Of a stretch of 64,000 bases of DNA, positions 26,045-62,373 are shown in pieces. The number at the start of each line of letters is the position of its first letter. Positions within the stretch are counted from its first letter, which is position 1. The notes beneath the pieces were generated by a model, which saw only the letters and a list, made by a program, of their open reading frames with translations, had not been told where the DNA came from and ran no database searches. This DNA comes from Eubacteriales bacterium (GTDB lineage: Bacteria > Bacillota > Clostridia > Oscillospirales > CAG-272): contig JAZQGU010000070.1 of the NCBI GenBank assembly GCA_045540175.1, forward strand, positions 41,412 through 105,411, written 5' to 3'. A program made the position numbers and the translations under genes.

Positions 26045-26130
26045 TTGAATGTCCTCCAAAAATTTGTTTTCTATAAAGTTATTATATCTCAACCGTTACA
26101 TATTTGTCAATACATAACGGTTCAAATACG

Positions 26131-28696: not shown

Positions 28697-28916
28697 AGAT
28701 AATAGAGAAAAAAGAATAGATAAGAAATCAGAATGAAATGTAACGAACAGTGCGACTTTGGTAGGGTGCTTTTCGTTTTATGTTATTACTGCTACAATAA
28801 ATTAACTTTGAGTTAACATTGTGTTTCCTACCGATACCTTTTCGGCAGACGATTTTGTGCTATAATATAAGCAGAAGCAGACGTCGGCTTACTTTTATCT
28901 CAACGGAGGTATGATT

Positions 28917-29879
28917 ATGACTATGACTATTGGCGCAAACATCAAGCGCCTGCGTACAGCAAATAACATCACTCAAGAACAGCTTTCTGTTTCTATGAAC
29001 GTTACCTGTGCTGCTGTCAGCAAATGGGAACGCGGTGAAACCTATCCCGATATTACTCTCCTACAGCCTTTGGCTTACTTTTTCGGCGTGACGCTTGACG
29101 AATTGATGGGTTACGATCACGAAAAGATACAAGCGGACATTAACAATAGAATTGCCGAGTACCGAAGCTATTGGAAAAGTGATTACGAAAAAGCAAGAGA
29201 GATCATTGTTAAAGCATATCATGATTATCCGAATGATTATTGGATCATGCACTATTATATGTGGAATATTGGCGGTGATTTTGCTGACAACGATCCCTCG
29301 GTTTTGATCGAACATAAGGACGAATTTCTTGCCATCTGCGAAAAGATTCTCGGCGGCTGTACTGATGAAGGTCTGCGTCTAAACGCCTGGAATATGCGAG
29401 CAAAAATTCTTCATGCCGAGGGCAAAACAGAAGAGGCACTCGAAATTTACAAGACAAAATTCACCGACTGGTTCACTACAAGCGGGCAAAAGACAGAGCA
29501 GCTCTTTGCCAAAGATACAAAGGAATACTATTTCTACGTTCAAAAGAACATGTATGAGCTTGCCGATTTTGCGGCTGATAAGCTTGGAAGAACATTGTTT
29601 TTCAACCCCTCGTTTACAATGGAAGAAAAGGCTGAGCGCGCGTTGTGTTATGGTGACCTGCTGTTATCAGCATTTGATCAGACAAACGAGGCATTTTTCC
29701 TCATGCTCGCAAGATCTTTCCTCGTAAGAATGAAAAACGATCTTAACTATCGCGGCGGAACAGCCGAACAGGTCAGCGCGGTTGCAGACAAACATTTGTA
29801 TGTCACAAAAATAACAGAGGATATGAGAAAAACAAACGAAGCCTTTAACCGCGCTTTTGACCGTTATGGTAAAGCGTGA
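28917..29879 (+). CDS. XRE-family HTH regulator with a C-terminal TPR-like helical-repeat domain (RNPP-like architecture)
   Basis: HTH segment is IKRLRTANNITQEQLSVSMNVTCAAVSKWERGETYP. About 250 aa of helical repeats follow (..AREIIVKAYHDYPNDYW.., ..KTEEALEIYKTKF..). The start is chosen at ATG 28917, 7 nt after GGAGG. Confidence 0.7.
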   Translation: MTMTIGANIKRLRTANNITQEQLSVSMNVTCAAVSKWERGETYPDITLLQPLAYFFGVTLDELMGYDHEKIQADINNRIAEYRSYWKSDYEKAREIIVKAYHDYPNDYWIMHYYMWNIGGDFADNDPSVLIEHKDEFLAICEKILGGCTDEGLRLNAWNMRAKILHAEGKTEEALEIYKTKFTDWFTTSGQKTEQLFAKDTKEYYFYVQKNMYELADFAADKLGRTLFFNPSFTMEEKAERALCYGDLLLSAFDQTNEAFFLMLARSFLVRMKNDLNYRGGTAEQVSAVADKHLYVTKITEDMRKTNEAFNRAFDRYGKA

Positions 29880-29978: not shown

Positions 29979-30103
29979 TTGTAGGGTGCGACGTCCTCGG
30001 CGCACCGCACCCAAACGACGTTACATTGATTTGGCACACGGTTGCTACGCAACCTACCTCATTCGACGGCTTCGCCGCCACCTTCCCCTGAGGGGAAGGC
30101 AAG
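29979..30103. repeat. Mosaic of GC-rich hairpin repeat modules (site A)
   Basis: Three modules are shared with 43.2-43.65 kb: GTAGGG-hairpin-AAACGA(C/T)GTTAC (29979-30024), GGTTGCTACGCAACCTAC (30040-30057), and ACCTCAT..CCTTCCCC-tga-GGGGAAGGCAAG (30056-30103). Confidence 0.8.
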
Positions 30104-30115
30104 AAAAAAGCGCCC

Positions 30116-30496
30116 TCACGGGCGCTTTTTTATTATTAGTTCAGTTATATAGGTAATTCCGCATCCGACTGCGTAGCAGATTATATCTATGAACGAAAAT
30201 GACGTTCCGACAATATTTGCTACTATCGAATCGCGCGGTATTCCAAGCAGGTCAACGATTTTTATGAGTTGGAGAAGCTCTACCGCAAGAGCAAAGATGA
30301 AAACGTAAAGCGGCAAGAGCTCTATTCCCGTCGGCTTCACTATTCTGATAAGGCAATATATCAGTATAACGACGAGGATGTCGCCGACGTACGGACGGAC
30401 GAATGCGTCGTGCACGAATGCACCTATCAATATTTCAATACACAGAAGCGCAAGAAACGCTGTCAGGTATGCTAAGCGCAGCTTCTTATGCTTCAT
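30116..30496 (-). CDS. DUF2809-like small membrane protein
   Basis: 126 aa, 4 TM helices. The motif FVRPYVGDILVVILIY matches what I recall for DUF2809. Its ATG shares one nucleotide with the typA stop. Confidence 0.55.
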   Translation of the reverse strand: MKHKKLRLAYLTAFLALLCIEILIGAFVHDAFVRPYVGDILVVILIYCLIRIVKPTGIELLPLYVFIFALAVELLQLIKIVDLLGIPRDSIVANIVGTSFSFIDIICYAVGCGITYITELIIKKRP

Positions 30497-40125: not shown

Positions 40126-41435
40126 GAAACGCCGTGGCAAAAGAAATTAAGCGATTTGATTTCGCAAAAAAGCCGAAAAAGCCCAGCTCTACCCTCAATT
40201 TCCTTGCAAAGAACATTCTCTGCAAACCCGACCTGAAAAAGAGAAATGCAAAAATAATAAAGCGCGGAATGGAGGAATACGAGGGCAAACCCTATCTTCT
40301 TCTCATAAACCACGCATCTATGGTCGACCTCAACATTATGATGATGGCGACTCATCCATACAAGGCTAATAACGTAATGACTCTCGAAGGTTTCCGCGAT
40401 TATACCGAGATTCTCATGAGAAACATGGGTGTTCTCGGCAAGAGAAAATACGTCTCCGACGTTCACCTCGTAAAGAACATTAAATACTGTCTGCATGAAT
40501 TAAAGACTGTATTCGCGCTGTTTGCGGAAGCGAGATATTCCCTTGACGGCAGAACCTCGTTCCTGCCCGAATCGCTCGGTCAGCTTGTCAAGATACTAAA
40601 GGTACCGGTCGTAATGCTGAAGATTCACGGTAATTTCGTCACCTGTCCGCAATGGAATAAAATAAACAAGAAAACCTACGTTGAAGCCGAAATGTACCCG
40701 CTTTTTACCGTTGAGGACCTCAAAAACTACTCCTCAAAGGAGCTTTTCGAGAAGATAAAAGAGGCTTATCAGTACGACGACTTCGCTTGGCAGCTTGAAA
40801 ACAAGATCATAATCGACCATCCCGAAAGAGCAAAGGGGCTTAACAGCCTCCTCTACAAGTGTCCTAAGTGCGGAACCGAGGGTAAAATGGAGGCGAGCGG
40901 AGCCACACTTTCCTGTACTGCCTGCGGCAAGAATTGGTTCATGAATGAATACGGACAGCTTGAAGGTGACGACGGCAGAACAGAGTTCTCCGAGATTCCC
41001 GAATGGGCAAGATGGGAGCGCGATATTGTACGCGAGCGCATAAGAAACGGTACTTACTATTTTGAAGATACCGTTCGTGTCGAGACTCTTCCCAATTCTC
41101 TTAAGTTCTACAAGCAGGGCGAGGGCAAGCTGGTTCAGACTCCCGAGGGAACAACTCTTACCTGCACCTGCTACGGTGAAGAAATTACCGTAGAAAAGCC
41201 CGGAATAGCCCTCGAAAGCATGCACGTTGAATACGATTACCGCGGAAACGGAGACTGCGTCGACATTTCTATCCCCGACGACAGCTTCTGGTGTTACCTA
41301 ACAAAGAAGGACGTTATCACTCAGCTTGCTTTTGCAACCGAGGAGATACACATTTACGCAAAAGAAAAACGCGAAGCTGAAAAGCTCGCAAGATCAAACA
41401 AAGGAAAAGAGGAAAAAGAAAATGGCAGTAATTAA
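40122..41435 (+). CDS. Lysophospholipid acyltransferase (PlsC/LPLAT) family protein with a C-terminal zinc-ribbon domain
   Basis: The HX4D motif is NHASMVD. Later comes CPKCGTEGKM...CTACGKNW. The start is uncertain (GTG 40122 overlaps the rlmA stop). Confidence 0.7.
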   Translation: MRNAVAKEIKRFDFAKKPKKPSSTLNFLAKNILCKPDLKKRNAKIIKRGMEEYEGKPYLLLINHASMVDLNIMMMATHPYKANNVMTLEGFRDYTEILMRNMGVLGKRKYVSDVHLVKNIKYCLHELKTVFALFAEARYSLDGRTSFLPESLGQLVKILKVPVVMLKIHGNFVTCPQWNKINKKTYVEAEMYPLFTVEDLKNYSSKELFEKIKEAYQYDDFAWQLENKIIIDHPERAKGLNSLLYKCPKCGTEGKMEASGATLSCTACGKNWFMNEYGQLEGDDGRTEFSEIPEWARWERDIVRERIRNGTYYFEDTVRVETLPNSLKFYKQGEGKLVQTPEGTTLTCTCYGEEITVEKPGIALESMHVEYDYRGNGDCVDISIPDDSFWCYLTKKDVITQLAFATEEIHIYAKEKREAEKLARSNKGKEEKENGSN

Positions 41436-43113
41436 GGTAGCCGATCTTCCCTACAAGAGATATACCATTGAGGAAGGCAAGGCGGCGTTTGAAAAATTCG
41501 AAGCGGCGATGAAGGAGGCAATGTGCGCAAACTGCGTTATGCGCGCAAGAAAAGCTTTCAGAACGGAAATGCGTAAATACGAAACACAGTATTCGCTTGC
41601 ATATTGCCGTTACACACTTAATACCAAAGACGAGTTCTACAAGGGAGAAATGGACTATTACGATAACGTCGGTCCCCTTTTCAGCGAGATCGGAACAAAT
41701 TACGCCGCTCTTATGCTGGACAGCCCCTATCGCGCAGACCTTGAAAAGCGTCTCGGCGAGCGTCTGTTTAAGATGTGGGAAATCGCAAGAAAGACCTTCT
41801 CTCCCGAGATCATAACCGATCTTCAGGAGGAAAACACCGTAATCACCGAGTATTCTCAGCTTATGTCGACGATGGTATTCGTTTATAACGGCGAGGAAAT
41901 GCCTCTTTCCGTTCTACGCGGAAAGCTCGAGGACGCTGACCGTTCGGTGAGAAAGGCGGCAGCGACAGCTATCGGAGAGGGTCTTGAAAGAAACTCGGAT
42001 AAGCTTGACGAGATCTACGACCGACTTGTAAAGATCCGCACCGGAATTGCGAAAAAGCTCGGTTATGAGACCTTTACCGAGCTTGGATATTACCGTATGG
42101 GACGTCTTGACTACGATGCGGAAATGGTTGCTTCGTTCAGAGAAAACGTAAGAAAATCGCTCGTTCCCGTTGTCGCTGAAATCAAGGAGCAGGTAAGAAA
42201 AGAACTCGGATACGATTCCATCACGTTTTATGATAACAGCATCTACGGCGGCGGAAGCTCTATCGTTCCGATTCTCGACAAGGACGGAATGTTCGCCGAG
42301 GCTCAGAAGATGTACGATGCTATGAACCCCGAGATCGGCGCCTTTATGAAGTCGATGCAGGAGGCGGAGGCGTTTGACGTTGAGTCGCGCGATGGCAAGT
42401 GGGGCGGCGGATACTGCACGGTATTCGAGGATTACAAGCAGCCCTTTATTCTCGCAAACTTTAACGGCACGACGGGCGACGTCGACGTTCTTACCCACGA
42501 ATTCGGTCACGCATTCGCCATGAAGAAGGCGCTTGACAAGGCAGACTGCGAGCTCGGTATCGGCGGATCTGAAACCGCAGAATGCCACTCTATGAGTATG
42601 GAATTCTTCTCATGGCCGTCTATGAACGCATTCTTCGGAAATGACGGAGACCGTTACCGCAGAAAGCATTTGATATCCGCTCTCGATTTCATTCCTTACG
42701 GCGTTATGGTTGACGAGTTCCAGCATGAGATATATGCTAACCCCGACCTTACTCCGGCAGAGAGAAAGAACGTATGGCTCAATCTTGAGAAGAAGTACCG
42801 CCCGTATATGGACTATGACAATCTTCCCTACCTCTCGCTCGGTACCCGTTGGCAGTATCAGATGCACATTTACGAGTCGCCCTTCTATTATATCGACTAC
42901 TGTCTTGCACAGACCGTTGCTATCGGATTCCTTTGCGCTTCCCGTGATAACTACAAATCAGCCCTTGACGCTTACATTAATTTCTGTCAGGCAGGCGGAG
43001 AGAAGTCATTCCCCGAGCTCATTTCCGATGCGGGTCTGTCCAATCCCTTTGAGGACGGCGCTCTCGATAAGATGGCAGAAAAGACCCTCGCGATTATCAA
43101 TTCGTTTAACTGA
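41422..43113 (+). CDS. M3B family oligoendopeptidase (PepF-like)
   Basis: The zinc site is LTHEFGHAF with a downstream E. Length is ~560 aa. The start is at ATG 41422; the track ORF starts 32 codons earlier inside the upstream gene. Confidence 0.85.
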   Translation: MAVIKVADLPYKRYTIEEGKAAFEKFEAAMKEAMCANCVMRARKAFRTEMRKYETQYSLAYCRYTLNTKDEFYKGEMDYYDNVGPLFSEIGTNYAALMLDSPYRADLEKRLGERLFKMWEIARKTFSPEIITDLQEENTVITEYSQLMSTMVFVYNGEEMPLSVLRGKLEDADRSVRKAAATAIGEGLERNSDKLDEIYDRLVKIRTGIAKKLGYETFTELGYYRMGRLDYDAEMVASFRENVRKSLVPVVAEIKEQVRKELGYDSITFYDNSIYGGGSSIVPILDKDGMFAEAQKMYDAMNPEIGAFMKSMQEAEAFDVESRDGKWGGGYCTVFEDYKQPFILANFNGTTGDVDVLTHEFGHAFAMKKALDKADCELGIGGSETAECHSMSMEFFSWPSMNAFFGNDGDRYRRKHLISALDFIPYGVMVDEFQHEIYANPDLTPAERKNVWLNLEKKYRPYMDYDNLPYLSLGTRWQYQMHIYESPFYYIDYCLAQTVAIGFLCASRDNYKSALDAYINFCQAGGEKSFPELISDAGLSNPFEDGALDKMAEKTLAIINSFN

Positions 43114-43136
43114 TGGCAAAAGATCAATGAAAAAAG

Positions 43137-43170
43137 CATCCACCCGCTCAGCGGGTGGATGTTTCATTTT
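43137..43170 (+). terminator. Intrinsic terminator after the M3 peptidase gene
   Basis: CATCCACCCGC-tca-GCGGGTGGATG followed by TTTCATTTT. Confidence 0.8.
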
Positions 43171-43214
43171 CGGGCGTAGCTCTGTTACCAGCTACCCGTA
43201 AACGGATTTCCTTC

Positions 43215-43648
43215 CTTGCCTTCCCCAGCGGGGAAGGTGGCTGCGACGAAGGAGAGTCGGATGAGGAGAAATCAAAAGCGGAGTAACTGACTTATTATAA
43301 TCAGATTCCTTGTGTTCAATATACCTCATCCGAGGTTTACCTCTTACCTTTCCCCGAGGGGAAGGCAAGACAACGTGGCGAAGTTTCGATACGTTGTTTG
43401 TAGGGACAGGCGTCCTCGACTGTCCGCACAAAAACGATGTTACGCCCTCTCCGAACACCTCATCCACCACCTTCGGTGGTCCCCCTTCTCCCACTGGAGA
43501 AGGTAAATGACGCCTTAATGCTTCACCACGTTTTCGTAGGGCGGGGGTTTGCTCGGAACCCCCAAAACTCGCGTTCGCTCGTTTCGTGGAACCCCGCCGG
43601 CTCCTTCAGTCAGCTACGCTGACAGCTCCCGTAGGTTGCGTAGCAAAC
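43215..43648. repeat. Mosaic of GC-rich hairpin repeat modules (site B, at least 7 units in both orientations)
   Basis: Units are 43215-43266 (inverted CTTGCCTTCCCC-agc-GGGGAAGG..GATGAGG), 43323-43369, 43398-43443 (GTAGGG unit), 43457-43506, 43533-43573, a hairpin at 43609-43623, and 43631-43648 (GTAGGTTGCGTAGCAAAC). Confidence 0.8.
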
Positions 43649-43771
43649 TACTCCGGAGTTGGAGCCATTGGCGTAAACTGCCCTTAAACTGCATTTTTCC
43701 TTTACATCATTTCTGTTCATCGGTAAACCTATATTGAACCCCGCCACTATGGCGGGGATTTCTGGTGCAAT

Positions 43772-43801
43772 AAAAAACAGCCACCGTCGGTGGCTGTTTT
43801 T
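43772..43801. terminator. Bidirectional hairpin terminator next to the surface-protein gene
   Basis: CAGCCACCG-tc-GGTGGCTG between A6 and T5 tracts. Confidence 0.8.
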
Positions 43802-43813
43802 CATTGTTTCAAA

Positions 43814-44572
43814 TTAGTGCTTCTTGGAAACGTAAGCGATTCCGAAGAGTGCAACTACTGCCATTGCAACGTATGCAACAACATTGTCGCCGGTCTCGGG
43901 GTTGCTGGGAGTCTCGGGAGTCTCGGGAGCAGGAGTGGTCTCGCCGGTAACTTCGAAGGACATGAATCCTACGTTGAATCCACCGCCGGCAGTATTGCCT
44001 TCAGCTCTGCCGACTACGAGAAGGATCTGCTCGCCTGCAGCAAGCTCGACGCCCTCACCGGTAAGGGTGGTAACTTCGTTTCTTGCAATGTCAGCTGCTT
44101 CAACGAGAACGGTTCCGTCGTTCTTGATAACTCTGACAGCAACAGACTGTCCACCGTTCTTGTTAACCTGAATGCTGAAAGCATAGGTGCCGTTAGCGGG
44201 AGCGGTGAAGCCTACGAGAGAGTCGTAAAGGAAGGTGTTAGTAGGATACATATCAAACTTAACAACCTCTGCGTCGCCCTCGGTCTTCTGGGTAACGTTG
44301 TTAGTCGTGCCAGCGGCGTGATCGGAGCCTGCAACCCAGTGGCCGGGCCAAGATTCAGACCAGGTAGTGGTAGCCTCAGTCTCAACTGCTACTACAGCAG
44401 AGTTCTCGATGTCCCAAGCACCGATGAAGAAGTTACCATCAACGGTCTTTTCGAGAGAGAGATCTGCAGTGTAGGAAACGGATTCAGCGTTTACCGGGAT
44501 AGCGGCAAAAAGCATACAACCAATGACCATAACAGCTGCAATCACAACGGAAAGTTTGCGTGTTCTGTTCAT
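43814..44572 (-). CDS. Secreted surface protein with a C-terminal sortase-type sorting signal (NPETG)
   Basis: The signal peptide is MNRTRKLSVVIAAVMVIGCMLFAAIPVNAES. The C-terminus is PETPETPSNPETGD, then a hydrophobic helix, then KKH. The start is at ATG 44572, 6 nt after GGAGG. Confidence 0.7.
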   Translation of the reverse strand: MNRTRKLSVVIAAVMVIGCMLFAAIPVNAESVSYTADLSLEKTVDGNFFIGAWDIENSAVVAVETEATTTWSESWPGHWVAGSDHAAGTTNNVTQKTEGDAEVVKFDMYPTNTFLYDSLVGFTAPANGTYAFSIQVNKNGGQSVAVRVIKNDGTVLVEAADIARNEVTTLTGEGVELAAGEQILLVVGRAEGNTAGGGFNVGFMSFEVTGETTPAPETPETPSNPETGDNVVAYVAMAVVALFGIAYVSKKH

Positions 44573-44879
44573 AAGAACCTCCAAAATAAAATATAATATT
44601 ATATTGTAATACTCTCATCGCGTCTGTGACGTCAGAGAGTTATTACCGAAAACAGGTGCCTGCGCTTACTCAAATTGCTTTTTAAATGAATAAGTTACAG
44701 ACAAGCATATTATACCTCCCCCCCGCAGTATTTGTCAATACTTTTTGTGAAAAAAATTAATAATTTTCAAATAATTTTTAAATAATCATCGGAGGGGAGA
44801 AAATGATACCGTTATGTTACGAAAAGGTACAGACATTCACCGACAGTTTATGCTGTCCATTCGTCGCTTGTAGCGTCTA

Positions 44880-48915: not shown

Positions 48916-49031
48916 ATTCACAAAAAACTTATATAAATTTCACAAAAAGTAGTGACAAACTTAATTCTTTATGGTATAATGTAGTTGCAGAAAGAAATTT
49001 CTGTAATACCAGCATAGAGGAGATAGTTTTT

Positions 49032-61134: not shown

Positions 61135-62373
61135 TCAGTTTACGCTATTGAGTATACCAATGAATATCGGAAGTCCCGTTGCGTTATCGACTATCATATA
61201 AAGAAACGGACGGTTGAGTATAACCGATATATTGGGGGAAGATAAGAGTTTCGCTCCGACAGACGTGACCGCGCCCGCTTTTGTTCCGGAGGCATCGACC
61301 TTTATATGGGTCTTGTGCACCACGTTTCCGATATATAGGTCGCTATCCGACATTTTTGAGAAATCCGCCTCCGGACCGAAAGCATCGGTCATACCGAGGG
61401 TTTTAAGGATCTCGGAAAGCTCAGCGCTGTAATCTGCCTCAAAAGCAGGCATCGAAGTGAGTACACTGACGTTTTGGGGAGCCAAAAGAGCGGAATTAAG
61501 CTCTTTCGGGTCAAGTGTTTGAAGAAGCTCCTCGGGAGTCATTCCCTCTTTCGGAAGAAGCGCGGCGAAGGAATAGTCACCGCCGACGTAGTTCTTTTTG
61601 AAGCCGACCGCATTTTCAAGTTCAAGATACTTATTCTCTTTTCCACAGAGCATATCGACGGTCTGCTTTTCGCCGCTTGCACTCGTAAATTCGCTTTGCC
61701 TTATATCGTGTTTATCATATTTGCTCTGCCATTCGGCTTCAAAGGCGATTGTGTTTATAAGGTAAAGCATCACCGTATCGGGAATACTGTCGATAACCTT
61801 GTTTATCATTCCCTTTGTATTTTTCTTTACCCATGAATTTATATCGTTTACCGTTTCGTTATCAAACTTCGCCTTATATGCATCAGCTCCGTAATAATCG
61901 GCATTTTTCTGCAAGAACTCTTTTTTGACGGAAAGAGATTCGCTGTCGCGGAACCATATCGAATTTGCGATAGTAAGCTCGCTCTTTTTACTTGACGGAA
62001 GTCCCTTTACGTAGCTGTAAAGGTAATTGTTCAGCTCGTCTATTGTCAATTCTCCGCCAAGGACTTCTTCCATCTGTGCAAGCGTATTTCCATCCGCGCC
62101 GTTTGCTGTCATTGAAAGCGCAAGCATTAAGGAAAGAGGTGACACCATCGTGTTTATTCCCTCGTTTGTCTTTGACGCTTCGATAAGAAGCTTAAGAGCA
62201 AATCCGGTTTGCTCGGCGGCAAATTCATCGGTAAGCGCCGTTTTATTCACCTTATTCGGCTTGATGCCGTCCATAAGAGAAGCGGCTTCAAATTTCTGCG
62301 CGCATCCGTAAAGCGAAAGCGCTGGGCAAATTACGAGCCACATGGAAAGTATCAGTATAAGTGCTTTTTTCAT
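61135..62373 (-). CDS. Serpin-family serine protease inhibitor, lipoprotein
   Basis: The lipobox is LSLYGC. The serpin blocks are NTMVSPLSLMLALSMTANGADGNTL and NTIAFEAEWQ. The reactive-centre-loop hinge is GTKAGAVTSVGAKLLSSP, followed by NRPFLYMIVD. Confidence 0.85.
   Translation of the reverse strand: MKKALILILSMWLVICPALSLYGCAQKFEAASLMDGIKPNKVNKTALTDEFAAEQTGFALKLLIEASKTNEGINTMVSPLSLMLALSMTANGADGNTLAQMEEVLGGELTIDELNNYLYSYVKGLPSSKKSELTIANSIWFRDSESLSVKKEFLQKNADYYGADAYKAKFDNETVNDINSWVKKNTKGMINKVIDSIPDTVMLYLINTIAFEAEWQSKYDKHDIRQSEFTSASGEKQTVDMLCGKENKYLELENAVGFKKNYVGGDYSFAALLPKEGMTPEELLQTLDPKELNSALLAPQNVSVLTSMPAFEADYSAELSEILKTLGMTDAFGPEADFSKMSDSDLYIGNVVHKTHIKVDASGTKAGAVTSVGAKLLSSPNISVILNRPFLYMIVDNATGLPIFIGILNSVN

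Follow-up and report, generated by a model that had tools for sequence, protein, structure and literature searches.

Dispersed palindromic DNA modules between convergent genes of a clostridial genome, and the pairing of their main family with DUF559 genes

The subject of this report is a mosaic of short palindromic DNA modules, the main family of which, here called T1, is found in other genomes paired around genes of the predicted nuclease family DUF559. The mosaic lies in a stretch of 64,000 nucleotides (the window in what follows) from the Eubacteriales bacterium assembly GCA_045540175.1 (Clostridia, Oscillospirales, CAG-272; contig JAZQGU010000070.1, positions 41,412 to 105,411). To its left stands the gene of a pepF-like M3 oligoendopeptidase (41422-43113, plus strand; Pfam Peptidase_M3), to its right, on the minus strand, the gene of a C1q-domain sortase-type surface protein of 256 amino acids (43814-44584; Pfam C1q-like, E 2e-6). 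Each of these convergent genes ends in a terminator of its own, as had been claimed from the letters of the DNA: the bidirectional hairpin of the pepF-like gene at 43134-43164 (93% complementary) and the hairpin of the surface-protein gene at 43768-43806 (95% complementary) are the best inverted repeats of the region, both are terminator-like sites, and they form the left and right borders of the mosaic.

The spacer between the two terminators (43171-43770) is non-coding according to Pfam, Rfam and tRNA searches and a promoter scan. No promoter-like site was found between the terminators in the site scan, none of the open reading frames (ORFs) across the repeats has a Pfam match, and tRNA or tmRNA genes were not found. 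Rfam gave nothing at gathering score in the whole window and, at E values up to 10, only terminator-like noise at this locus and at the second locus described below. Folding of the 600-nt spacer was compared with that of dinucleotide shuffles; the z-scores are -7.24 and -6.19 for the two strands, and none of 100 shuffles equalled the native sequence. An earlier, sequence-only reading had described a mosaic of small, modular, non-coding palindromes in both orientations, and had taken the ORFs predicted here for translations of repeats. Structure z-scores, matches of a covariance model and the lack of Pfam matches bear this description out, and all the repeat units listed at the time are present, displaced by a few bases at most. 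Several other candidates were rejected. TRF reports no tandem repeat. Protein coding was dismissed on the lack of Pfam matches for internal ORFs and on the lengths of the variable part of T1, which are not multiples of three. Integron attC sites and CRISPR were both rejected on layout. A hammerhead ribozyme, prompted by CTGATGAGG in the B-type arms of T1, was rejected as well, since CGGATGAGG stands in the commoner arm and a GAAA core is missing after it.

Read 5´ to 3´, T1 consists of a box (A)CCTCATCC(G), a hairpin that differs in nearly every copy and a conserved hairpin CACCTTCCCC-nnnn-GGGGAAGGC. Its core pattern has four matches in the window against 0.00 expected, and a covariance model (R1), built from 16 copies all of which come from other genomes, recognizes four full copies there (E 5e-11 to 1e-7). 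Copy a (43216-43269, minus strand; 40.7 bits, E 1e-9), with the box CCTCATCC, a variable hairpin and CACCTTCCCC-gct-GGGGAAGGC, and copy b (43321-43368, plus strand; 33.0 bits, E 1.4e-7), with the variable hairpin GAGG-ttta-CCTC, are the left and right arms of an inverted doublet whose boxes face inward. The AT-rich centre of this doublet (51 nt, 43270-43320) holds no gene and no recognizable gene remnant; in other loci, the centres of gene-less doublets have a median length of 47 nt. Copy c (43455-43506, plus strand; 40.7 bits, E 1e-9) has CCTTCTCC-cact-GGAGAAGG as its second hairpin. Direct comparison with the consensus of B-type copies, CCTCATCAGTCAGC..GCTGACAGCTTCCCC, which was recovered from the flanks of other copies, revealed one more, truncated copy at 43601-43630 on the plus strand. 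It retains a degenerate box CTCCTTCAG, the hairpin GTCAGC-tac-GCTGAC and the start of the second hairpin, AGCTCCC; what had been listed as a separate GTCAGC unit is the variable hairpin of this copy.

The fourth full T1 copy (30054-30102, plus strand; 45.4 bits, E 4.7e-11) belongs to a second small mosaic at 29981-30131, between convergent genes of a helix-turn-helix (HTH) protein and a DUF2809 protein (Pfam). It is followed by a bidirectional terminator (30104-30131) common to both genes. The HTH/TPR regulator (28911-29879) has 320-322 amino acids here and in a 91% identical relative, L241, and 356-358 in all relatives of about 82% identity; its last ~36 codons and its original terminator are lost exactly where the mosaic starts. 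In L241 a different module stands behind the same HTH gene, and the contig ends 256 nt after the gene.

In both mosaics T1 is accompanied by hairpins of another layout, in which a 5´ GTAG is directly followed by a GC-rich hairpin (T2 and T3). T2 copy a (43400-43443, plus strand) is REP-like, with the stem-loop GGACAG-gcgtcctcga-CTGTCC behind its GTAG head and the tail GCACAAAAACGATGTTAC. A scan for GTAG hairpins found a second copy at 29981-30024 (plus strand), GTAGGGTGCG-acgtcctcgg-CGCACC with the tail ..CCAAACGACGTTAC. The two are true homologues: they have the loop CGTCCTCG in common, and their stems differ by compensated changes (ACAG/CTGT against TGCG/CGCA). Sixteen more copies of this sub-family occur in 10 loci of other genomes. 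The hairpin GGGGGTT-tgctcgg-AACCCCC (43536-43563, same scan), formerly joined with T2 copy a in one type, turned out to be another kind of GTAG hairpin, joined at 43536-43598 (plus strand) to the tail AAAACTCGCGTTCGCTCGTTTCGTGGAACCCCGCC ("T4"), which is specific to the lineage. The tail (43557-43598) has a single copy in the window and was met elsewhere in two fetched loci only, L099 and L241. The third type of the original list is present at 43631-43648 (plus strand) as GTAGGTTGC-gta-GCAAAC; it is a GTAG-headed mini-hairpin akin to T2 (our T3) and recurs on the minus strand at 30040-30057 as GTAGGTTGCGTAGCAACC, where it abuts the T1 box (same scan). The truncated T1 at 43601-43630 is cut off by T3. 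Besides these two places of the window, GTAG hairpins abut or interrupt T1 in L022, L035, L099 and L101, and in L022, L035 and L101 the T3 module stands 3´ of GGATGAGGT.

Between T1 copy b and T2 copy a lies a linker hairpin ACAACGTGGCGAA / TTCGATACGTTGT (43370-43397, an inverted repeat). Its motif GGCAAGAcAACGTGGCG also stands 3´ of T1 in L099, a locus with the same kind of mosaic and with a T1 whose variable hairpin is identical to that of copy b. At 43323-43600 the succession of T1, linker hairpin, GTAG hairpin and tail occurs twice with a period of ~135 bp (T1 at 43323 and 43457, GTAG at 43400 and 43536); TRF misses the two copies because of their divergence. At 29981-30102 and in L099, too, a GTAG hairpin precedes T1. 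This arrangement suggests that T1, linker, GTAG hairpin and tail make up a composite unit of this lineage.

T1 is not confined to this genome. When species-representative genomes were scanned for the pattern CCTCATCC-N6-36-CCTTCCCC-N2-4-GGGGAAGG, at least 120 stretches from many genome assemblies contained it. With the R1 model, the first 100 of these loci, together 710 kb, yielded 225 matches, ~200 of them full-length; the remaining 23 added 60 matches, of which ~43 are full-length. The sequence-only reading had reckoned with the chance that no copies exist beyond the two loci of the window; these numbers dispose of it. Among the matches listed, many carriers are metagenome-assembled genomes (MAGs) of Oscillospirales, Acutalibacteraceae, Lachnospiraceae and Christensenellales from the human gut and from ruminants, and Selenomonas and Schwartzia (Negativicutes) occur too; the cultured carriers are Gemmiger formicilis ATCC 27749, Pseudoflavonifractor intestinihominis, Bifidobacterium simiarum and B. 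callimiconis. The labels Barnesiella and Flexilinea, which also appear among the matches, may be binning errors. We found no paper containing the exact T1 sequence; our literature search was incomplete and an earlier description is possible.

Single T1 modules disperse as discrete units with sharp ends, because near-identical copies sit in unrelated flanks. In 34 pairs of T1 cores, 44-61 nt in length, identity reaches 96% or more although the flanks on both sides are unrelated; it mostly stops 0-4 nt from the ends of the model. Examples are L109 (5098 versus 6975) and L022 (2465 versus 6650), and identical modules were also seen in contigs of different samples. Close relatives of our genome differ in presence and absence of modules, a polymorphism for which a check had been proposed: L001, whose pepF is 93% identical, has a 38-bp spacer without T1; L003 (pepF 87% identical) has a different T1 doublet; and L241 has the different module mentioned above.

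On its G-rich strand T1 reads CCTTCCCC, loop, GGGGAAGG, hairpin, GGATGAGG, that is, C-block, G-block 1, hypervariable hairpin and G-block 2. G-block 2 mirrors G-block 1 by the purine-motif rule, in which the third block is set antiparallel against the second with G.G, A.A and T.A. In the commonest sub-type the mirror holds at 7/8 positions (8/9 with the flanking A/T), in copy c of the window (GGAGAAGG / GGATGAGG) it is perfect at 8/8, and in another sub-family (GGGGAGAAGG / GGATGAGGGG) it reaches 10/10. Extensions of the blocks covary, GGGGGAAGG with GGATGAGGG and GGGGAGAAGG with GGATGAGGGG. Beside more divergent DUF559 genes the modules have other sequences and the mirror is kept: AAGGGAGG / GGAGGGAT in L209 and GGGGAGAG / GAGAGGGG in L211 (8/8 each), GGAGGGG / GGGGTGG in L214 (7/7), and GGAGAAGG / GGTTGAGG in L213 (8/8). 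When pyrimidine/purine hairpins were scanned systematically, 462 of 916 strand-reads proved to have a mirror block, one mismatch being allowed, in the 60 nt downstream; a parallel control gave 186 and an upstream control 134.

Similar blocks are known from the BoxC/PIT/TMECO repeats. BoxC and PIT elements were reportedly described by Bergler in 1992 and by Hoyne and Maher in 2000. TMECO is built of a C-block, a loop, a G-block, TTA or CCG, and a mirror G-block, and in vitro forms an intrastrand triplex that is stable; it is intergenic, strand-unbiased, occurs in inverted A+B pairs and marks variable regions, and according to its authors it was never found with remnants of transposases or integrases (PMC4666352). 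T1 likewise has C, G and mirror-G blocks on one strand, is intergenic without strand bias, frequently forms inverted A+B pairs (for example in L004, L044 and L075), varies in presence between strains and is accompanied by no transposase that we could find. Its box GGATGAGGTG aligns with the third TMECO block GGGTGAGGGG, and the modules of L213, which stand beside a 38% identical DUF559, have the exact TMECO layout, with the loop TTA and no inserted hairpin. There are differences as well. The blocks of T1 have 8 nt and those of TMECO 9 nt, and the commonest T1 sub-type contains one mismatched triad; where TMECO has a 3-nt loop, T1 has a hypervariable hairpin of 12-36 nt; and the TMECO scheme, with loops of 3-6 nt and 3 nt between blocks of the consensus CCCTCNCCC..GGGNGAGGG..GGGTGAGGG, is not that of T1, whose block sequences differ. 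The hosts of T1 are Firmicutes and Actinobacteria, whereas TMECO occurs in E. coli and other Proteobacteria, and the triplex seen in vitro for TMECO is a predicted one in T1. On this layout, the most fitting description of T1 is that of a BoxC/PIT-like element whose second loop carries an inserted hairpin. Because the hairpin sits in loop 2, TMECO-style searches, which allow loops of up to 6 nt, never found T1.

Does T1 act as DNA or as RNA? Among 141 distinct copies, 95.4% of cells are paired, compared to 36-76% in slid controls. All seven pairs of the variable helix covary, and the 305 double-change cells counted over two helices were reached in none of 500 shuffles. Hardly any G-U pairs occur, at most one cell per pair; since an RNA helix would tolerate them, this argues for palindromic pairing of DNA on both strands. 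Genomic context was assessed on 218 T1 copies from other genomes, using crude ORF calls. Although only 12% of the sequence is intergenic, 72% of the copies are. They fall into 82 tandem, 25 divergent and 18 convergent gaps, in proportion to all gaps (395, 127 and 113), so that the preference for 3´ ends of convergent genes, which the window alone had seemed to indicate, is a local accident. Solo copies show no bias of orientation relative to the upstream gene (20:13). Because of the few G-U pairs, the lack of strand bias, the position of the window copies between terminators without a T-run and the mirror blocks, the observations point to a DNA-level element rather than an RNA.

That these are RNA-level elements, either hairpins of 3´ untranslated regions (UTRs) that stabilize or terminate transcripts, or small RNAs with anti-Shine-Dalgarno boxes, we consider very improbable. 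Some details do look the part: in 39 of 148 copies a CTTT behind the second T1 hairpin completes a terminator-like structure, CACCUCAUCC, the sequence of the box, is similar to an anti-Shine-Dalgarno sequence, and a terminator follows the copy at 30054-30102, which is situated in a 3´ UTR. However, hundreds of covarying cells contain almost no G-U, orientation is unbiased and copies also occupy divergent (promoter) gaps, no Rfam family matches at gathering or permissive thresholds, and in the larger mosaic of the window, which terminators enclose on both sides and in which no promoter-like site was found, the copies are followed by CAAG. The mirror relation of the purine-motif blocks is moreover a feature of DNA; Holder et al. 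2015 point out that triplexes of this kind are not formed by RNA (PMC4666352). Stabilization of mRNA 3´ ends, one of the functions once considered for these units, is disfavoured by the same scarcity of G-U pairs and lack of strand bias. The modules at 43171-43770 are probably inert passengers in a transcriptionally silent gap, with no host function.

The new result is that DUF559 (Vsr-like) genes are embedded in pairs of T1. Clustering of the ORFs in T1-selected loci yielded one small family, present in seven loci and always situated between two T1 copies. It is Pfam DUF559 (PF04480; E 4e-30, 104 bits against a cut-off of 20.6), and NCBIfam names it "DUF559 domain-containing protein" and no more. 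The proteins are free-standing, ~120 amino acids long, and conserve the DUF559 core (IVDFY .. ELDG.QH .. R) with the invariant columns D51, E62, D64 and H68. Their profile matches PDB 3hrl (E 6e-20) and 3r3p, the catalytic domain of I-Bth0305I (E 2e-4), and, weakly, homing-endonuclease families in PADLOC and PHROGs; YcjD-like proteins were earlier predicted to be Vsr-related PD-(D/E)XK nucleases (PMC1189080). The family is large (more than 8000 clusters at 90% identity, many of them on very short contigs), and 35 relatives were found in 2.9 million viral contigs. We found no paper that ties DUF559 or ycjD to BoxC/PIT/TMECO or other repeats, our literature search being incomplete.

In the T1-selected loci all nine DUF559 genes or pseudogenes detected by tblastn are directly flanked by T1. 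In the commonest arrangement the upstream arm is inverted, which places ...GGATGAGGTG 3-8 nt ahead of the ATG. G-block 2 of this arm serves as the Shine-Dalgarno sequence of DUF559, to which the T1 box is reverse complementary; the downstream arm, in direct orientation, overlaps the stop codon. Because these loci had been chosen for T1, the converse test was performed: a metagenome scan with the DUF559 alignment gave 590 relatives, of which 80 loci (55-88% identity, 184 kb) were kept. The R1 model finds ~170 full-length T1 in them. An nhmmer profile, used as an independent detector, puts the density of T1 at 4.26 per kb up to 200 nt from DUF559 and at 0.16 per kb in the rest of the same loci, a 27-fold difference. 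Both flanks are available in 67 loci: in 54 of them T1 lies within 200 nt of the gene, and with ten more recognized by the covariance model it stands within ~250 nt in about 64 of 67. Decayed elements exist too. The gene of L047 has an in-frame stop and a 3´ truncation, and in L119 only 30 codons are left between two T1 arms.

Some further observations concern the surroundings of these elements. A metagenome contig, L144, carries at 1-1420 a tandem array of T1 doublets (period ~158 bp) on both sides of a DUF559 gene, and nothing similar was seen elsewhere. Assemblies of relatives often break at or beside repeats (L002, L241), and many DUF559 matches come from contigs that are 500-2000 bp long. 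T1 is frequently translated as part of predicted proteins, giving stretches like ..TSS.. and ..PSPQGEG... It is likely that T1 is a source of spurious "hypothetical proteins" and of fragmented MAGs.

Selection for a host function without any mobility, in which the units would serve as binding or structure sites (cruciform, triplex, nucleoid protein, gyrase, insulators) and the link to a nuclease would reflect no more than shared regulation, appears hardly probable at all. Conservation of the three blocks across phyla would suit it, as would the stable triplex that TMECO forms in vitro and its property of marking variable regions (PMC4666352). It accords poorly with the differences between close relatives (L001 has no T1 at pepF, L241 a different module behind the HTH gene), with identical copies in unrelated flanks, with the truncated and interrupted copies in the window and with the extreme enrichment around one small gene family.

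The GTAG hairpins have to be judged separately. REP (repetitive extragenic palindromic) sequences are imperfect GC-rich palindromes of ~20-40 nt with a 5´ GTAG, and the gene of their cognate transposase RAYT (REP-associated tyrosine transposase, of the Y1/HUH type) is typically flanked by the repeats. In the window, the GTAG head is present at 43400-43425, 43536-43563, 43631-43648, 29981-30006 and 30040-30057 only, and T1 is without it. T1-selected loci contain 114 GTAG hairpins compared to 18 in shuffled sequence, a sixfold enrichment; near DUF559 there is no enrichment (8 in 184 kb). Because they are enriched in T1-rich loci yet not near DUF559, T2 and T3 are a REP-like family independent of T1, and the three types once taken for one family separate into a three-block element and GTAG hairpins.

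A classical scheme of REPs and BIMEs (bacterial interspersed mosaic elements), in which a RAYT-type (IS200-like Y1) transposase, its gene lying elsewhere in the genome, recognizes and mobilizes all units including T1, is improbable in our opinion. It would fit the REP hallmark of T2 and T3 with its 114 sites, and the two-orientation mosaic does resemble BIMEs. T1, however, has no GTAG head, and no RAYT/IS200-like gene was found by tblastn with an E. coli RayT probe in the window or in 1.1 Mb of repeat-bearing loci, a search which a divergent RAYT could escape; the sole, weak match, a lipoprotein-type serpin of 412 amino acids (61135-62373, minus strand), is spurious. Nor was any ORF flanked by inverted T2 copies found, nor, in a literature search that was incomplete, a paper on REPs and RAYT in Firmicutes. 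T2 is not enriched near DUF559; it may still be RAYT-dependent, which would be uninformative on T1. Mobilization by a RAYT-like transposase, as once considered, thus lost ground, the partner gene of T1 being DUF559; from the REP/BIME analogy the mosaic organization and the GTAG hairpins remain, whereas T1 falls to the BoxC/PIT-like elements. T1 nevertheless shares with REPs, BIMEs and REPINs that it is a short extragenic palindrome occurring in hundreds of copies, in both orientations, in inverted doublets and in mosaics, and that a small nuclease-type gene is flanked by its associated repeats. It differs in the partner, PD-(D/E)XK (DUF559) instead of HUH/Y1, and from REPINs also in that the two arms of a doublet carry different variable hairpins.

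E. coli, too, has a DUF559 gene beside a TMECO. In the region of K-12 examined (L205, 1351204-1351830) there is one annotated DUF559 gene, ycjD. Its start is embedded in the palindrome CACCTCATTCTGACAA...TTGTCAGAATGAGGTG (CCTCAT/GAATGAGGTG), and its stop overlaps CACCCTCTCCC, after which a duplicated fragment of a DUF559 3´ end follows. In the numbering of Holder et al. 2015 (PMC4666352), the BoxC repeat 168 bp from ycjD is TMECO number 9. Of 5426 complete E. coli genomes, 3375 contain the ycjD region. O157:H7, considered as a clean empty site, was rejected as uninformative, since the eef TetR/RND island stands there in place of the region.

The best explanation, to which we lean without great confidence, is that the locus is a gene-free pile-up of dispersed DNA repeats from at least two independent families, and that T1 and DUF559 form a selfish partnership of nuclease and repeat, comparable to REPs or REPINs with RAYT. 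We infer that DUF559 mobilizes T1. For the mechanism itself, our confidence ranges from tentative to about that of the leaning just expressed. The predicted nuclease would recognize folded T1 (a hairpin or triplex, in extruded or single-stranded DNA) and nick or cut there; host repair or recombination would then copy or retain T1 modules together with the DUF559 gene and so propagate both. Gene-less single modules and doublets, such as that at 43216-43368, would be non-autonomous passengers, and the GTAG hairpins a separate REP-like family that would repeatedly land beside or inside T1. A parallel may also be drawn to the retention role of accessory nucleases in small transposons. More speculatively, nucleases of the Vsr fold like DUF559 and YcjD might be the missing partner of BoxC/PIT-type elements in general. 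Such a minimal selfish class, so far unrecognized, would span phyla and consist of a gene flanked by T1 arms, ~0.5 kb in all, and of 50-nt modules dispersing on their own, with a structure-specific nuclease in a RAYT-like role.

Several points weigh against this partnership. The comparative data come mostly from MAGs and metagenome contigs. No DUF559 gene lies within the 64-kb window, and in T1-selected loci T1 copies outnumber DUF559 genes ~24:1. Target-site duplication is not visible at the near-identical T1 pairs, and the flanks of ycjD are degenerate and were not detected by the T1 model. DUF559 proteins cluster only weakly by module type (58-64% identity within and 55-58% between the three main types), and a strong co-diversification was therefore rejected. 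To our knowledge, PD-(D/E)XK nucleases have no strand-transfer chemistry, so the copying must be left to the host. Finally, the gene occurs in both doublet geometries (35 with boxes inward, 16 outward), which fits insertion of the gene into a doublet equally well, and the centres of gene-less doublets are unlike deleted genes, as only one of 43 keeps GAGG-N-ATG. An origin of doublets in general by internal deletion, in the manner of MITEs (miniature inverted-repeat transposable elements), was rejected on account of these centres; such deletion is documented in L119 and L047 only.

The last two points are equally part of the case for DUF559 as a free-standing homing endonuclease. It would cut gene-less doublets, which serve as landing sites, and be copied in by recombination via the T1 arms, while T1 itself would spread by an unrelated mechanism. 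We take this to be unlikely, though by no means negligible. The homology of DUF559 to I-Bth0305I and homing-endonuclease families supports it, as do L022, where the gene is bracketed by a 30-nt direct repeat of part of T1 and followed by an ordinary doublet centre, doublet centres that are not gene remnants (one of 43 with a start codon after the box), and the patchy distribution of ycjD given above. On the other hand, the doublet centres are heterogeneous, which makes a sequence-specific target within them unlikely, and homing leaves unexplained why T1 supplies the ribosome-binding site and stop codon in most cases, and why divergent modules of the same plan stand at divergent DUF559 genes. 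I-Bth0305I itself (Vsr-like fold; PDB 3r3p) has additional regions that bind DNA and resides in phage genes, within introns and inteins. DUF559 resembles it as a homologue that is small, patchy and set in a repeated sequence context; it differs in being free-standing, in intergenic repeat doublets of cellular genomes, and in being rare in viral contigs.

Returning to the proposed partnership, T1 may also be compared with MITEs and with modular repeats of Firmicutes and Neisseria, the BOX, RUP and Correia elements. It is likewise small, non-coding, structured, modular and intergenic, its non-autonomous copies are related to a gene-carrying element, and L119 is an internally deleted DUF559 element. 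In contrast to MITEs, T1 has neither the terminal inverted repeats of a known insertion sequence nor a target-site duplication, the associated gene is a nuclease with no known transposase activity, and the dispersing unit is a single 50-nt T1 module and not an element bounded by terminal inverted repeats. We noticed no sequence likeness of T1 to pneumococcal BOX and RUP, with which no formal comparison was made.

A few features of the region stand apart from these families. The GC hairpin CCCCGCC-act-atGGCGGGG at 43739-43757 (plus strand), a terminator-like site, was not assigned to any family; as a direct repeat it shares GAACCCCGCC with 43589-43598. The surface protein encoded at 43814-44584 is small and secreted and has a signal peptide; at its C-terminus an NPETG motif precedes a hydrophobic tail. 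Among sortase-type surface proteins of bacteria, its C1q-like domain is unusual. Its gene is absent from the pepF-guaB spacer of the relative L003. Upstream of it, at 44708-44752, and at 26080-26113 and 48938-48959, stands a motif TATTTGTCAATAC / TTTGTCAATACTTTTTGTGAAA (inverted copy 95% identical), which may be a common promoter or operator.

Short palindromic repeats leave their mark on bacterial genomes: they break assemblies, create spurious ORFs, seed rearrangements and can terminate transcription, and their biology outside Proteobacteria is almost uncharted. Clostridia of gut and rumen, some Bifidobacterium and some Negativicutes share a very abundant T1 family that is not in Rfam, and it is this family-level result, going beyond a lineage-specific analogue of REPs, that we see as the main value of the analysis. 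A T1 model would clear thousands of false "hypothetical proteins" from annotations of MAGs and would explain the assembly breaks in L002 and L241. Two old unknowns, the origin and spread of BoxC/PIT elements and the function of DUF559/YcjD, come under one testable hypothesis. If it is true, DUF559 would acquire a function, and repeats unexplained in E. coli since 1992 an origin.

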